Of a DNA stretch of 64,000 nt, positions 2,728 to 61,343 are shown piece by piece. The stretch is from Minisyncoccia bacterium (GTDB lineage Bacteria; Patescibacteriota; Minisyncoccia; Phycocordibacterales; JAACPR01). Position 1 is the stretch's first letter. Each line of letters begins with the position of its first letter. The stretch is taken from positions 6,054 to 70,053 of the forward strand of contig JBLINH010000001.1 of assembly GCA_047639165.1 (NCBI GenBank). Reading direction: 5' to 3'. A program made the translations under genes and the position numbers. Below the pieces are notes generated by a model, which saw nothing but the letters and a program-made list of their open reading frames with translations, was not told where the DNA came from and searched no databases.

Positions 2728-3360
2728 TTATTCTTTTGCCTTCATCTTCTTGCAGAACTCTTTAAAAGAGGATACATCCATCAGGAATTGGTTCTTTGTA
2801 AGCCCCTTCTTTTTATTCTTTAATAAAATATTCATTTCATCTTGGGATGTGTCCTCATTTATTTGTAAAAATATTACAGGGAACTCGTTCATCATTTTAA
2901 GGTCATACTTACGTAGTTTGCTATTCAAACATCCTAATAAGCTACCTTTGTCATTGGCATAAAAAACATCTACAGAAAAATGTTTCTTTTTATAAGAAAT
3001 AAAGAAATCTGACTTAGCTCTATGATCATCAGTGAAAGAAAAGTTTCTGTGTATACTACGAGGCTCAAAATTGGCTTCTAAGAGTTTGTAAATTTTTTTA
3101 ACGTAGTTTTGTTTACGTAGATATATGTCAGAGGCCCTTTTTGAACTATAAGAACCTTCAGCCAAATTATGTTGGCCGGTAAGTTTCAATTCTTTTCTTA
3201 AATTTACCAGTCCCCCAAACCTTCTTTGAATTTGGCGTGAAGATGGGAGGTCCTCATGTTTATCAAATTCTACAGATGTTGGATACCTTTTATTGACTTT
3301 ATAAAAAGAGGTTAGTCCTTTTTTTATTTTCTTTAAGTCCCAAGTAGGTTTTTTTGGCAT
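2728..3360 (-). CDS. Hypothetical protein with a homing-endonuclease-like N-terminal DNA-binding motif
   Basis: A 210-aa ORF. N-terminal YPTSVEFDKHEDLPSSRQIQRRFGGLVNLRKELKL resembles the PS..TI.RRFGSW..AL helix motif of phage HNH/homing-endonuclease proteins. The gene is bracketed by 14-bp inverted repeats. Confidence 0.4.
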   Translation of the reverse strand: MPKKPTWDLKKIKKGLTSFYKVNKRYPTSVEFDKHEDLPSSRQIQRRFGGLVNLRKELKLTGQHNLAEGSYSSKRASDIYLRKQNYVKKIYKLLEANFEPRSIHRNFSFTDDHRAKSDFFISYKKKHFSVDVFYANDKGSLLGCLNSKLRKYDLKMMNEFPVIFLQINEDTSQDEMNILLKNKKKGLTKNQFLMDVSSFKEFCKKMKAKE

Positions 3361-37096: not shown

Positions 37097-37423
37097 TTAC
37101 TTAGCGTCTTTAATAGAAGCAACCTCTTCTTCTAGTTTTCCTAACCTCTTTTCTAAGTTTTCGACTGTCTTATCACACTGGTCATTTTTGACTATAAGTT
37201 CGAACACTTCGATTTTACCCTTCATATTCTTTTCCTTTTTTTGGAGAGTTCCAATTTCAATCTTTGCTTTTGTTAGTTCGCTCTCTAATTTAGTCTTTCG
37301 AGATTCTAGATTTGAAACATCTCCACATCTACTGCGAAGACTTTCACTCAGAGTTTCAAGTTCTTCTTTTAGTTTGGTGTTCTCTCTGATAATATCTTCT
37401 ATACTCTTAGAATCAGTACTCAT
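37097..37423 (-). CDS. Coiled-coil protein (108 aa)
   Basis: Heptad-rich and Lys/Glu-rich, with a downstream terminator. The overlapping plus-strand ORF is judged an antisense artefact. Confidence 0.45.
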   Translation of the reverse strand: MSTDSKSIEDIIRENTKLKEELETLSESLRSRCGDVSNLESRKTKLESELTKAKIEIGTLQKKEKNMKGKIEVFELIVKNDQCDKTVENLEKRLGKLEEEVASIKDAK

Positions 37424-51581: not shown

Positions 51582-51656
51582 GGTGGACCTGACAGGATTT
51601 GAACCCGCTACCTCCTCAGTGCAAATGAGGCGCTCTACCAATTGAGCTACAGGCCC
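51582..51656 (-). tRNA. tRNA-Ala (anticodon UGC)
   Basis: The reverse complement folds as a cloverleaf. Acceptor GGGCCTG/CAGGTCC has a G3:U70 pair, the anticodon loop is TTTGCAC, the T-loop is TTCAAAT, and the discriminator is A with CC encoded. Confidence 0.85.
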
Positions 51657-57626: not shown

Positions 57627-59639
57627 CTATTTCTTTCTCATCTCCTCCAGAATCTTTATCTCATCACGAAGTATAGCTGCTGTTTCAAAATCTAATATCT
57701 TCACAGATCCCTCCATTTGTTTTTCTTTTTGTCGTATTAATTTATCTGGATTCTTTTTAAGTAGTTTAGCGTCTATCTTTAATAGCCTACTAACAGTCTT
57801 CTCATGATCTGTTTGCATTGTTTCAGTAATATCTCTAATCGCTTTTGAAATAGTTTTAGGAGTAATTCCATGTTTCTCATTATATTCCATCTGAATACCT
57901 CGTCTTCTATTTGTTTCGTCTATCGCGTACTCCATTGCTTTTGTCATTCCATCCGCATACAGAATTACACGCCCTTCAACGTTTCTAGCAGCTCTACCGA
58001 TTGTTTGTATAAGTGCGGTTTCTGATCTAAGAAAACCTGCTTTGTCTGCATCTAGTATTCCAATCAATGTAACTTCTGGCATATCTAAACCTTCTCGGAG
58101 TAAGTTAACTCCTACTAATATATCAAACTCTCCTTTTCTAAAAGCTGAAATTATTTCAACTCTTTCAATGGTTTTAATATCACTGTGTATATATTTTGCT
58201 TTTATTCCTTTCTCATCCAAATATTCAGAAAGATCCTCTGCCATTTTCTTTGTAAGTGTCGTCGCAAGTACTCGACCACCTTTTTTGATCTCCTTTAGAG
58301 ACTGTGTTATGAAATCATTTACTTGTCCTTTGTAACTACCTTTTTCAGTTATTGGTTTTACCTCGAGTTTTGGATCAAGTAATCCTGTTGGTCTGATAAT
58401 TTGTCGCGCGATACTTGTACTAACTTCCCCTTCGTATTTACCTGGTGTAGCTGATGTATATATTGTTTGACCAATTCTTTTTTGAAACTCATCAAATTTC
58501 AGAGGTCTGTTGTCTTTAGCACTTGGAAGTCTGAAGCCGTGTTCAACCAAAGTTTGTTTTCTTGAAGCATCTCCTGCATACATTCCGTTTAATTGTGGAA
58601 CTGTTACGTGAGATTCATCTATTACGGTAAGAAAATCAGGTGACCCATCCTTCTTATGTGGAAAATATTCTAAAAGTGTACTTGGGGCTTCTCCAGCTTT
58701 TGCTCTAGAGAAATGTCTTGAGTAGTTCTCAATTCCATTACAATATCCAACCTCTTTTATTAGAGCTAGATCATAACTTGTTCTTCTTTTCAGTCTTTCT
58801 GCTTCCAAAAGCTTTCCTTCCTTTTCAAAAGTCTTCAATTGTTCTTTCAATTCACTTTGGATTGTTTTTACAGCTGCCTTCTTATCTTCCTCATCAGTGA
58901 TGAAATGCTTAGCTGGGAATATGAAAGTAGTTTCCAATTCCTCTATAATTGTTCTATTAACTGCATCTATCTTTGTGATACTTGAAATTGTATCTCCTTC
59001 AAAGATAAAACGAAGGATAAATCTTTCAGACACAGGCATTACTTCAATTGAATTTCCAATAGCTCTCAATGTCCCTGGATTTAGATCAGCATTAGTTCTT
59101 TGGAAGTGGATCCTAACAAGACTTCTAACAAACTCGCTTCGTGAAATCTTTTCTCCTTTCTTTACCTTTAGGTTTACCTTCTCGTATTGCTCTGGTGAAC
59201 CAAGACCATATATACAAGAAACAGAAGCGACGATAATAACATCCTTTCTTGAGAGAAGAGCTTGAGTTGAAGCATGTCTTAATCTGTCTATTTCTTCATT
59301 GATCTGTGCCTCTTTCTCTATATATGTATCAGTCACAGGCATATATGCCTCTGGTTGATAGTAATCATAGTATGAGACAAAGTAATGCACGGCATTATCA
59401 GGAAAAAATTCCGTATACTCTTGAGCTAGCTGAGCAGCTAAAGTTTTGTTGTGTGCGATGACAAGTGTTGGTTTTCCAACCTTTTCTATTATATTCGCCG
59501 CTGTATATGTCTTACCACTCCCGGTAACACCTAAAAGGGTGACATGGTCTTCACCATTCTCAATACCTTTCATCAGGGTTTTGATGGCCGTTGGCTGATC
59601 TCCAGAAGGAGAATATGGGGCTTTTAGTTTGAATTTCAT
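57627..59639 (-). CDS. uvrB: Excinuclease ABC subunit B
   Basis: GVTGSGKTYT, the helicase motifs, the beta-hairpin region YYDYYQPEAY, and a C-terminal UVR domain. Confidence 0.9.
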   Translation of the reverse strand: MKFKLKAPYSPSGDQPTAIKTLMKGIENGEDHVTLLGVTGSGKTYTAANIIEKVGKPTLVIAHNKTLAAQLAQEYTEFFPDNAVHYFVSYYDYYQPEAYMPVTDTYIEKEAQINEEIDRLRHASTQALLSRKDVIIVASVSCIYGLGSPEQYEKVNLKVKKGEKISRSEFVRSLVRIHFQRTNADLNPGTLRAIGNSIEVMPVSERFILRFIFEGDTISSITKIDAVNRTIIEELETTFIFPAKHFITDEEDKKAAVKTIQSELKEQLKTFEKEGKLLEAERLKRRTSYDLALIKEVGYCNGIENYSRHFSRAKAGEAPSTLLEYFPHKKDGSPDFLTVIDESHVTVPQLNGMYAGDASRKQTLVEHGFRLPSAKDNRPLKFDEFQKRIGQTIYTSATPGKYEGEVSTSIARQIIRPTGLLDPKLEVKPITEKGSYKGQVNDFITQSLKEIKKGGRVLATTLTKKMAEDLSEYLDEKGIKAKYIHSDIKTIERVEIISAFRKGEFDILVGVNLLREGLDMPEVTLIGILDADKAGFLRSETALIQTIGRAARNVEGRVILYADGMTKAMEYAIDETNRRRGIQMEYNEKHGITPKTISKAIRDITETMQTDHEKTVSRLLKIDAKLLKKNPDKLIRQKEKQMEGSVKILDFETAAILRDEIKILEEMRKK

Positions 59640-59676
59640 CAGTTTAAAGTACCATTGAAATTACATTATGGAAAGG

Positions 59677-60111
59677 CTAAACTCCTAACTTTTCAAATTT
59701 ACCATCATGTTCTGCTATTTTCTCATGATGGTGAGCCACAAGTTCAGATATTCCTTTTGTGTTATCTCTAAATTCTTCTATTAAGGCACCTGTATGCCTA
59801 TGGAACATTTCTATTACCTCATCGAAACGTTTGTCTACATCACTAAAACATAGATCTATATCGTCAAACTTTTTGTCTACATAATCAAAACGTTTATCTA
59901 CATCACTAAAACGTTTGTCTACATCATCAAAACGTTTGTCTACATCACTAAAACGTAGATCTATATCACTAAAACATAGATCTATATCGTCAAACTTTTT
60001 GTCTACACGTAAAAACTTTCCACCCATGTATCTTTTCAAGTATTCTTTTGTCACATAGTCATTCTTCATTACCCACATCATATCATATGGGCATGAAGTA
60101 CTTTTCAACAT
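59677..60111 (-). CDS. Phe-heptad tandem-repeat protein (144 aa)
   Basis: Residues 33-102 are ten 7-aa repeats F(D/S)x(V/I)D(K/L)(R/C/K), encoded by 21-bp tandem units. The C-terminus is His-rich (HHHEKIAEHDGKFEK). Confidence 0.55.
   Translation of the reverse strand: MLKSTSCPYDMMWVMKNDYVTKEYLKRYMGGKFLRVDKKFDDIDLCFSDIDLRFSDVDKRFDDVDKRFSDVDKRFDYVDKKFDDIDLCFSDVDKRFDEVIEMFHRHTGALIEEFRDNTKGISELVAHHHEKIAEHDGKFEKLGV
59819..60007. repeat. Nine tandem 21-bp repeats, including a perfect 42-bp duplication
   Basis: The units are in phase. 59840-59881 is identical to 59966-60007. Confidence 0.9.
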
Positions 60112-60125
60112 AAAATAAAGGGACC

Positions 60126-61343
60126 TTAAAGATATTCTTTCAAAAATTCATCCCTATACTCCTCAAAACTATCATCTAAGATACTTTGCCTGATATCTTT
60201 CACAAGATTCACTATGAAGTACAAGTTATGTATTGAAGCCAGTGTTCCACTCAACATTTCTTTGGCCTTAAATAAATGATTCAGATATGATTTTGTGTAA
60301 CCCTTACAGGTGTAACATCCACAGTTATCAATCGGGGTGAAATCTTCGATAAACTTCTCATTATTTAAATTAATCTTTCCTTTCTTTGTATACACCTGAC
60401 CGTTCCTAGCAATCCTCGTTGCGGCTACACAATCAAAAAGATCACACCCTCGTTCAATAGCCATGAAGAAATCTTCCGGTTCACCAATCCCTAATAGGTG
60501 TCTTGGTTTTTCTTCAGGTAAAACCTCATTCACCCATTCTACTGCAGTAGACATATCTTCTTTTACAAAACTTCCTCCAATACCGTATCCATCAAAATCC
60601 ATCTCTCCTAAGAATTTAGCACTTTCTTTACGTAAGTCTTCATGGCGTCCTCCTTGAACAACACCGAACAAAGCTTGTCTTTTTGAGTTCTCTTTTGACT
60701 TATGAAAGTCCAAAGATTCTTTAGCCCATCTATGTGTCCTGTCCAATGCTCGTCCTTGATAGTGTTTTGATTCGGCAGGAGATGTACACTCATCAAAAGC
60801 AAATATTATATCAGCTCCAAGGTTGTGTTGAATCTCAATAGATTTAGATGGGGTGAAGTAGTGTGCTGACCCATCAATATGTGATCTGAAGGTTACTCCC
60901 TTCTCATCAATCTTCGCAGGTTTAAAATGCTTTGAAATTTCTCTACCATCTCCGTCATTATTCAGAGGAGCATTTAATTGTAGTTCCACTTCCCCTTTAG
61001 CTATCTTTGTAACTTGATGTCCAAAAGCTGCTCCAAGTGAAAATACTTGAAACCCTCCGGAATCGGTCATTAGTGGTTTGTCCCAATTCATATACTTATG
61101 CAACCCTCCACCTTTAGCTACTACTTCGTCTCCTGGTTGAAGATATAGGTGATATGTATTTGAGAGTGTTACTTCAGCACCAAGACCTTCCAACATTTCC
61201 GGTGTTAAGCCTTTTAGTGTTCCTTTTGTAGCAACAGGAACAAAAGCAGGAGTGTGTATCTTTCCGTGAAGTGTTTCAATTACACCAGCACGCATGAGTT
61301 TGCCTGTCTTCTTTACAATATTAAATTCTATTGGCTTTTCCAT
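60126..61343 (-). CDS. tgt: Queuine tRNA-ribosyltransferase
   Basis: LMTDSGGFQVFSL and the C-terminal zinc site CGCYTC...H. Confidence 0.9.
   Translation of the reverse strand: MEKPIEFNIVKKTGKLMRAGVIETLHGKIHTPAFVPVATKGTLKGLTPEMLEGLGAEVTLSNTYHLYLQPGDEVVAKGGGLHKYMNWDKPLMTDSGGFQVFSLGAAFGHQVTKIAKGEVELQLNAPLNNDGDGREISKHFKPAKIDEKGVTFRSHIDGSAHYFTPSKSIEIQHNLGADIIFAFDECTSPAESKHYQGRALDRTHRWAKESLDFHKSKENSKRQALFGVVQGGRHEDLRKESAKFLGEMDFDGYGIGGSFVKEDMSTAVEWVNEVLPEEKPRHLLGIGEPEDFFMAIERGCDLFDCVAATRIARNGQVYTKKGKINLNNEKFIEDFTPIDNCGCYTCKGYTKSYLNHLFKAKEMLSGTLASIHNLYFIVNLVKDIRQSILDDSFEEYRDEFLKEYL

Follow-up and report, generated by a model that had tools for sequence, protein, structure and literature searches.

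A heptad-repeat coiled-coil protein gene between tgt and uvrB in a Paceibacteria genome

In a stretch of 64,000 nucleotides from a Minisyncoccia bacterium (contig JBLINH010000001.1; hereafter the window), a short gene on the minus strand lies between tgt and uvrB and encodes a 144-residue protein, here called P0001, built around ten consecutive seven-residue repeats. The gene, its in-phase repeats, the prediction of a long helix, a wide family of related proteins and copy-number polymorphism in relatives are established. The reading that we favour, with a probability of roughly 0.6, is that P0001 assembles with copies of itself into a parallel coiled-coil rod of about 16 nm, the length of which can be changed by recombination within the array.

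The gene and its repeat array

Identical copies of P0001 are held under three NCBI accessions from metagenome-assembled genomes of Candidatus Paceibacteria, and a 5761-bp JGI contig, which matches the window at 100% identity, carries it as a called gene between TGT and UvrB. The gene sits 14 nt 3′ of tgt and 37 nt 5′ of uvrB in a run of genes on the same strand, and is the only one with an FDxVDKR array within the 64-kb window. P0001, with neither a signal peptide nor a hydrophobic segment that could span a membrane, is probably a soluble protein of the cytoplasm.

Relatives with genomes of 35% to 72% GC have the same peptide, FDDVDKR, encoded by quite different codons: TTTGATGATGTTGATAAAAGA in the AT-rich genomes of the candidate phyla radiation (CPR) versus TTCGACGACGTCGACAAGCGC in GC-rich ones. 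Because the peptide is kept while its codons differ, selection acts on the protein and not on the DNA, and this comparison is the strongest case for a gene. The gene is real, accessory and specific to its lineage, and belongs to a Paceibacteria (CPR) bacterium. The nine phased direct repeats of 21 bp that lie between two housekeeping genes could also be taken for iterons or regulator sites acting as DNA, with the reading frame incidental. We consider this very unlikely: relatives keep the peptide rather than the nucleotides, the repeat search found no inverted repeats, promoter- and terminator-like sites around the gene are no commoner than in shuffled sequence, and arrays elsewhere lie inside open reading frames at unrelated sites.

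A preliminary description of the locus had read residues 33-102 as ten Phe-Val/Ile heptads encoded by in-phase 21-bp repeats, and translation, Tandem Repeats Finder and a second repeat search all bear this out (Table 1). The heptads follow the pattern F-[D/S]-D-[V/I]-D-[K/L]-[R/K/C], with Phe at every a position, Val (seven) or Ile (three) at d, Asp at e in nine of the ten, Lys at f in six and Arg or Lys at g in seven. Tandem Repeats Finder reports 7.2 copies of period 21 (59825-59975) and 3.0 copies of period 63 (59821-60007), which corresponds to nine 21-bp units, and the second search returns the same 21-bp spacing. Defining an FDxVDKR array as at least three consecutive F-x-x-[VIL]-[DN]-x-[RK] heptads in a small protein, we count nine or ten in P0001. 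Hydrophobicity along residues 33-102 has a sharp periodicity of 3.5 residues, which moves to about 3.6-3.67 residues in residues 103-144.

The same description reported a perfect 42-bp duplication; the identity stands, although the exact run is 43 bp long. Units share 71% identity on average, a level at which some 7e-4 exact runs of this length would be expected in the array. The pair is therefore not due to chance; it is the mark of a recent duplication or gene-conversion event, in keeping with the recent repeat expansion proposed earlier. The other units have diverged: shifted by 21 bp, they match exactly over 19 bp at most.

The gene may also be read from Met15, which would give a shorter protein. 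A −10-like hexamer ends 7 nt 5′ of the Met15 ATG, no such box precedes Met1, and a protein starting at Met15 would resemble the family, in which N-termini are short. Across the 48 gene starts of the window no Shine-Dalgarno sites were seen, and a −10-like hexamer (TATAAT, one mismatch allowed) that ends 4-10 nt before the ATG precedes 18 of them compared with 6% of all ATGs. This suggests that many transcripts in this genome are leaderless or near-leaderless. Examples of starts with such a box, all on the minus strand, are at 3360, 16054, 22813, 32490, 33714 and 51532.

Table 1. Features of the P0001 locus, in positions of the window.
Feature	Position	Strand	Residues or sequence	Basis or remark
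Heptad-repeat coiled-coil protein gene (P0001)	59677..60111	minus	144 aa + stop	Open reading frame listing; same protein in NCBI and JGI
Shorter reading of the P0001 gene	59677..60069	minus	Start Met15, 130 aa, MKNDYVTKEYL...	−10-like box and short family N-termini
−10-like hexamer upstream of Met15	60077..60082	minus	TATGAT	Consensus match only
N-terminal cap motif, beta-layer-like	60037..60060	minus	Residues 18-25, DYVTKEYL	AlphaFold2; likeness to MPN010 and DUF families
Heptad array, ten 21-bp units	59806..60015	minus	Residues 33-102	Repeat finding and translation
Heptad unit 1			FLRVDKK	Degenerate
Heptad unit 2			FDDIDLC	
Heptad unit 3			FSDIDLR	
Heptad unit 4			FSDVDKR	
Heptad unit 5			FDDVDKR	
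Heptad unit 6			FSDVDKR	
Heptad unit 7			FDYVDKK	
Heptad unit 8			FDDIDLC	
Heptad unit 9			FSDVDKR	
Heptad unit 10			FDEVIEM	Degenerate
Exact 43-bp repeat, copy 1 in gene order	59965..60007	minus	Residues 36-49, VDKKFDDIDLCFSD	
Exact 43-bp repeat, copy 2 in gene order	59839..59881	minus	Residues 78-91	126 bp (six units) from copy 1
C-terminal helical module	59680..59805	minus	Residues 103-144, FHRHTGALIEEFRDN...HHHEKIAEHDGKFEKLGV	AlphaFold2 helix to 141, pLDDT 97-98
tgt, upstream neighbour	60126..61343	minus		Pfam TGT; closest relatives 76-77% identical
uvrB, downstream neighbour	57627..59639	minus		Pfam UvrB domains

Relatives, database names and genomic setting

FDxVDKR heptad proteins, which the preliminary description proposed to look for in related lineages, turn out to form a large group. 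A word-indexed search with P0001 returned 118 hits, and an exhaustive search 4079 cluster representatives at E≤1e-3 and 273 at E≤1e-10. It is the array that accounts for the matches to array-bearing proteins, which reach E values of 1e-23 to 1e-27. The heptad consensus of 117 homologues is F79% D52% D33% V65% D64% K58% R73%, a figure that is partly circular, since it was likeness to P0001 that brought these homologues into the set. Among the named hosts are Alpha- and Gammaproteobacteria, Solirubrobacterales, Vicinamibacterales, Bryobacteraceae, Bacillota, an Oceanobacillus isolate (sp. CFH 90083, L042), Spirochaetia, Bacteroidales and Latescibacterota, together with Saccharibacteria, Falkowbacteria and a Thermoprotei archaeon. 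Judged by these matches, FDDVDKR is a widespread prokaryotic module, found in bacteria and at least one archaeon, and P0001 joins a very large, uncharacterised class of small prokaryotic coiled-coil proteins with a labile coding repeat.

Two further forms of the motif were seen along the way. Variants with a period of 11 residues (NRFDDLKRDMD, DKRFDDLKEYV), which are hendecad versions of the heptad motif and often accompany a C-terminal membrane anchor, occur in Latescibacterota (L046, L049, L052) and in archaeal-type sequences (P0009, P0035, L044). Giant library proteins of 7009, 1734 and 1344 aa (P0239, P0240 and P0241) hold up to 41 separate array-matching stretches.

Likeness to relatives also extends beyond the array. 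A CPR subfamily has the N-terminal motif K.T.E.LARM...GF, and the N-terminus of P0001, DYVTKEYLKRYMGGKF, follows it with no gap; T21, E23, L25, M29 and F33 fall in place and the protein ends in KLGV, at low overall identity. The segment VTKEYL is identical in the homologues P0038 and P0076. Directly after the array, FHRHTGALIEEFRDN matches YERHTGIILEQMRHDN in P0332, a protein 42% identical to P0001 over residues 35-140, and the C-terminal HHHEKIAEHDGKFEKLG matches HHGKILSNHEERLEDLE in P0012, the final KLGV corresponding to KLGI or KIGV elsewhere. The C-terminal module as a whole (RHTG...HH..KI..H..KF..LG) is kept in P0332, P0012, P0037, P0297 and P0337.

About one third of the 118 homologues have a single hydrophobic anchor at the N-terminus (for example P0022, P0030 and P0031) or at the C-terminus (for example P0002, P0010, P0027 and P0038), and the rest look soluble. 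This terminal segment beside the same array would fit a role for P0001 as an envelope anchor or spacer, a molecular ruler that reaches the membrane through a partner, and so would P0038 and P0076, which share the VTKEYL segment, the former with a sub-threshold match of its N-terminus to CCDC90-like/DUF1640 proteins. We nevertheless find such a role unlikely for P0001, as the protein itself has nothing that would place it in or across a membrane and no membrane-protein gene is consistently adjacent.

Curated models say little about the family. The best Pfam match of P0001 is DUF7310 (PF23991), with 16.8 bits and E 0.0097 against a gathering threshold of 40 bits, which none of the ten homologues scanned reaches either; DUF7310 and DUF16 are the models that recur most among them, always below threshold. 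Scans of P0001 against PHROGs and PADLOC gave nothing at threshold, and the PHROGs matches are to families of unknown function. A marginal RmuC match in one homologue (29.9 versus 26 bits) was read as a coiled-coil false positive, and PF27742, precomputed on many homologues, is "CTXL_M", with faint matches only.

NCBI and JGI name P0001 "archaellum component FlaC", and this name is the one point in favour of such an identity, to which we give practically no credence. The host is bacterial, the neighbours are tgt and uvrB with no archaellum genes nearby, P0001 has no match to FlaC_arch (PF05377) at E≤10, and the names that JGI gives to homologues scatter over EzrA, MtrG, prefoldin, RmuC and SMC ATPase. 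The name is a coiled-coil false positive; it is wrong and should not be propagated.

Against PDB sequences, P0001 alone gives nothing below E 0.1. A profile of the CPR subfamily finds PDB 7O97 with an E value of 3.5e-6, and the match takes in a specific segment at the N-terminus (KKPITLEKLVSMVAVGF). A full-text literature search returned no papers for the peptide, and none was found for 7O97.

The gene occupies a slot that varies between close relatives. In genomes with Tgt 72-76% identical, the frame LOG-tgt...uvrB-adk is kept and no syntenic orthologue of P0001 is present; the slot (L030:5225-6225, L032:4302-5587 and L033:5228-6872, compared with 59640-60125 in the window) holds unrelated genes, namely a 248-aa protein without a Pfam match, a metallo-beta-lactamase-fold protein, and an ADP-ribosylglycohydrolase with small open reading frames. 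This variability among genomes with close Tgt indicates that the P0001 gene is, by comparative gene order, a lineage-specific insertion. Elsewhere the array is found in other settings: a Saccharibacteria homologue (contigs L004, L010, L015, L020, L021 and L037) lies in a pentose-phosphate operon, GAPDH-RpiB-Rpe-[X]-transketolase-PfkB, P0025 between phoR-like and phoB-like genes and P0003 near a PemK toxin gene. Clustering of the neighbours at about 48 loci found none that recurs across lineages. A scan of viral contigs retrieved a single large phage protein of no relevance, and phage genomes searched by tblastn yielded no match.

Two recurrences were observed in passing. In two unrelated genomes a PemK/MazF-type toxin gene is found about 1 kb or less from a homologue (L041:3027-4342 and L055:3126-4782), and in the first of these, from Bacillota, the homologue is also downstream of a split transketolase, as in Saccharibacteria. 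We judged the proximity to PemK and transketolase to be probably coincidence.

Where genomes of relatives are otherwise near-identical, it is plainly the array that changes most readily. In Saccharibacteria, the flanks of the six contigs L004, L010, L015, L020, L021 and L037, which come from different samples, are at least 99.5% identical over several kilobases; the contigs differ only in carrying 3, 4, 5 or 6 units, the variable unit being the perfect 21-bp TTTGACGACGTTGACAAAAGA. L014 and L017 differ by no mismatch in 1749 bp and by a single 21-bp indel, and L029 has 2 units versus 8 in L002. The same variation is seen at the protein level in P0011/P0070, P0012/P0037, P0002/P0014 and the P0003 group.

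Other observations concern the window at large. Nearly all open reading frames of at least 120 aa are minus-strand, and of the 4-kb bins only the first lacks a negative GC skew, consistent with a single replichore arm; there is a single tRNA (51584-51656, minus). The reading frame at 37100-37423 (minus), 108 aa and rich in Glu, Lys and Leu (MSTDSKSIEDIIRENTKLKEELETL...), is weakly matched by three homologues and has the look of a further small coiled-coil protein with no relation to the heptad array.

The predicted rod and its oligomeric state

AlphaFold2, run on a single chain with an 18-sequence alignment, models P0001 with a mean predicted local distance difference test (pLDDT) of 87.8, as a long helix that runs unbroken from residue 31 to 141, preceded by two short ones (9-17 and 22-29). 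A coiled coil rises by about 0.148 nm per residue, and the predicted rod of 111 residues is about 16 nm long. The Phe-zipper-like coiled coil of the preliminary description survives in part, in that the model and the 3.5-residue periodicity agree on a long helix of coiled-coil type; it is not a phenylalanine zipper, which in the literature has Phe at both a and d, whereas in P0001 ten of ten d positions are Val or Ile and Phe is confined to a.

At the N-terminal side of the array the modelled helix is broken at residues 18-21, within DYVTKEYL, and resumes at K22; residues 19-24 read Y-V-T-K-E-Y, in which T-K and an MPN010-like Y-V are present and position 6 is Tyr instead of Asp or Glu. At the C-terminal side, what had been described as a His-rich tail is no tail, as histidines 104, 106, 127-129 and 135 lie within the continuous predicted helix and belong to the conserved C-terminal module. 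By a register assigned from sequence, His106, His128 and His135 would occupy core (d) positions.

A lone amphipathic helix of 16 nm is not a plausible end state, and for this reason we infer a homo-oligomer. A trimeric state, a role for the histidines and a spacer function are likewise proposals. In the proposed mechanism, P0001 would self-assemble into a parallel rod whose core is formed by Phe at a and Val/Ile at d. Between helices, Arg (g) would pair with Asp (e), and within each helix the Asp residues at b and c, which stand four residues ahead of Lys f and Arg g, would pair with Lys/Arg (f, g), a pattern typical of stable coiled coils. The beta-layer-like motif would cap the rod at its N-terminus, the conserved C-terminal module may be its functional or interaction end, and the ten heptads would act as a spacer of adjustable length between them. 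Recombination or slippage in the 21-bp array would then add or drop whole heptads, each worth about 1 nm, and leave the register intact. Given that the units of P0001 have diverged, the likeliest rearrangement is recombination between the two 43-bp copies, which would change the protein by six heptads, or about 6 nm.

Among oligomeric states we rank the trimer first, at somewhat short of even odds. The YVT-K of P0001 resembles the beta-layers of the MPN010 trimer and coincides with the helix break in the AlphaFold2 model, and many homologues end in a formal R-hxxhE motif (RITRLE, RLEDLE, RIKDLE), defined as Arg(g)-[ILVM](a)-x-x-[LIV](d)-Glu(e) (PMC3653964). Trimeric HA2 stalks, in which the pattern F..V...F occurs, are among the best PDB profile matches that follow 7O97. 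Beta-branched residues at d, moreover, disfavour dimers, as known generally from GCN4 variants (PMC3653964). Oligomers above the trimer would come next, at clearly lower odds of between a quarter and a third.

Several observations weigh against the rod reading or parts of it. The match to a beta-layer is partial, with Val in place of Ala and Tyr in place of Asp/Glu; the strict R-hxxhE motif is absent, the heptads reading R-F-D-D-V-D and the C-terminal copy K-F-E-K-L-G; Leu at f in three heptads and Cys at g in two are unusual for an exposed surface; and Phe-rich cores in the literature give 4-, 5- or 6-helix assemblies. P0001 falls below the cut-off of every Pfam and NCBIfam model, with generic coiled-coil matches only; the exhaustive search of cluster representatives found no close full-length homologue besides itself; and without a conserved neighbourhood, context is silent on function. 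The earlier claim of a locus prone to copy-number change finds support in the arrays of relatives; at P0001 itself all available records are identical and the units have diverged, and scans of metagenomes and genomes found no second copy of the locus of this species. Finally, short-read assemblies can miscount perfect repeats longer than the k-mer length, although in Saccharibacteria the copy number tracks a flanking single-nucleotide polymorphism (Val/Ile alleles), which argues for real haplotypes rather than assembly artefacts.

One alternative is that the same rod is a higher-order bundle or alpha-helical barrel, from tetramer to hexamer and possibly antiparallel, instead of a parallel trimer. 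Phe at every a and a beta-branched residue at every d, the wider hydrophobic face that Leu at f gives to three of the ten units, the Cys at g, the missing strict trimerisation motif and the precedent of Phe-rich cores would all suit it. Set against this, positions e and g are mostly Asp and Arg, where barrels prefer residues that are small or hydrophobic, the beta-layer-like cap and the R-hxxhE motifs of homologues point to trimers, and the designed Phe zippers differ in having Phe at both core positions. We hold the barrel to be the most serious of the alternatives, with perhaps one chance in four.

The variable slot, the unconserved context and the isolation of the full-length protein raise a different possibility, that of a selfishly expanding coding repeat without specific function, whether a tolerated low-complexity reading frame or a spurious call; short open frames on the opposite strand also cross the repeat. 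This seems improbable to us, more so than the envelope ruler. The residue pattern is kept position by position while codons differ from 35% to 72% GC, N- and C-terminal modules outside the repeat are conserved, the AlphaFold2 model is confident, and a frame of 144 codons stays open in a 35% GC genome.

The parallel rod is thus weighed above these alternatives. A stronger form of it, which we put forward only as a long shot, would make the FDDVDKR array a dedicated rod module of prokaryotes, tunable in length, its surface specific and conserved and one of its ends bearing a His-based switch. If that were so, the surface would have been kept across phyla for a defined trimer, for cation binding or for a periodic partner, the 21-bp repeats would be a built-in switch that sets rod length in 1-nm steps, even in reduced CPR genomes, and the core-facing histidines of the C-terminal module would form a pH- or metal-sensitive end.

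Taken alone, P0001 adds one more to the uncharacterised small coiled-coil proteins. Of wider use is that the thousands of cluster representatives in its group, from bacteria and archaea, are captured by no curated model, and the crystal structure of a CPR relative (7O97) leaves it open to structural work. The array in relatives is a handy strain marker and a natural experiment on rod length, and if the oligomeric state and partner are found, this heptad, with Phe at a, Val at d, Arg at g and Asp at e, would contribute a natural rule to the design of coiled coils.

Comparison with known coiled-coil and repeat systems

The nearest solved structure is 7O97, an engineered variant of the hypothetical protein UY81_C0065G0003 from Candidatus Giovannonibacteria, a small CPR coiled coil. 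Its N-terminus (KKPITLEKLVSMVAVGF) fits K.T.E.LARM...GF, the motif to which the N-terminus of P0001 aligns, and leads into a coiled-coil stretch of the (D/K)(K/R)ID type. In contrast to P0001, it has ETATIKA-type repeats and no FDxVDKR array, and it is retrieved by the subfamily profile only.

Further parallels come from proteins with beta-layers. MPN010 of Mycoplasma pneumoniae (DUF16, PDB 2BA2) has the beta-layers RYVTHKQL and NFVTKTEF (PMC4786415), and P0001 shares with this trimer the N-terminal YVT-K followed by a coiled coil that includes hendecad-like stretches; the homologues P0023 and P0332 have DUF16 matches of 27.6 and 25.5 bits, below the cut-off of 40. DUF16, however, lacks the FDDVDKR tandem array, and P0001 has no profile match to DUF16, DUF1640 or DUF3782 (PF01519, PF07798 and PF12644). 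In the DUF1640/CCDC90-like and DUF3782 stalks a beta-layer motif stands at the start of a long stalk, where P0001 has its beta-layer-like segment, with the consensus [aliphatic]-A-T-K-[polar]-[DE] in DUF3782/DUF1640 (PMC4786415), and in the alpha/beta coiled coils of Hartmann et al. (eLife, 2016) the DUF3782 protein Tcar0761 is a stand-alone example with 14 MATKDDIAN repeats (PMC4786415). Their repeats are beta-layer nonads, whereas those of P0001 are plain heptads, and P0001 lacks both the head and the membrane segment of DUF1640 proteins.

The Bdr proteins of Borrelia offer the closest parallel to the behaviour of the array, being likewise small, repeat-dominated proteins of which the copy number differs between near-identical strains, as it does in the Saccharibacteria relatives. 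They are membrane-anchored, differ in repeat sequence and period, and show no detectable sequence relationship to P0001. At bdrT, about 9 versus about 6 repeats are found at 99.4% identity; the genes sit on cp32 prophage plasmids, and the function of Bdr is unknown (PMC3303823).

With designed coiled coils, finally, P0001 shares Phe in the heptad core and, as in the R-hxxhE motif, an Arg at g and an acidic residue at e that flank the h-x-x-h pattern. It departs from the designed Phe zippers in carrying Phe at one core position rather than two, and from the strict R-hxxhE motif in having Phe instead of Ile, Leu, Val or Met at a and Asp instead of Glu at e.

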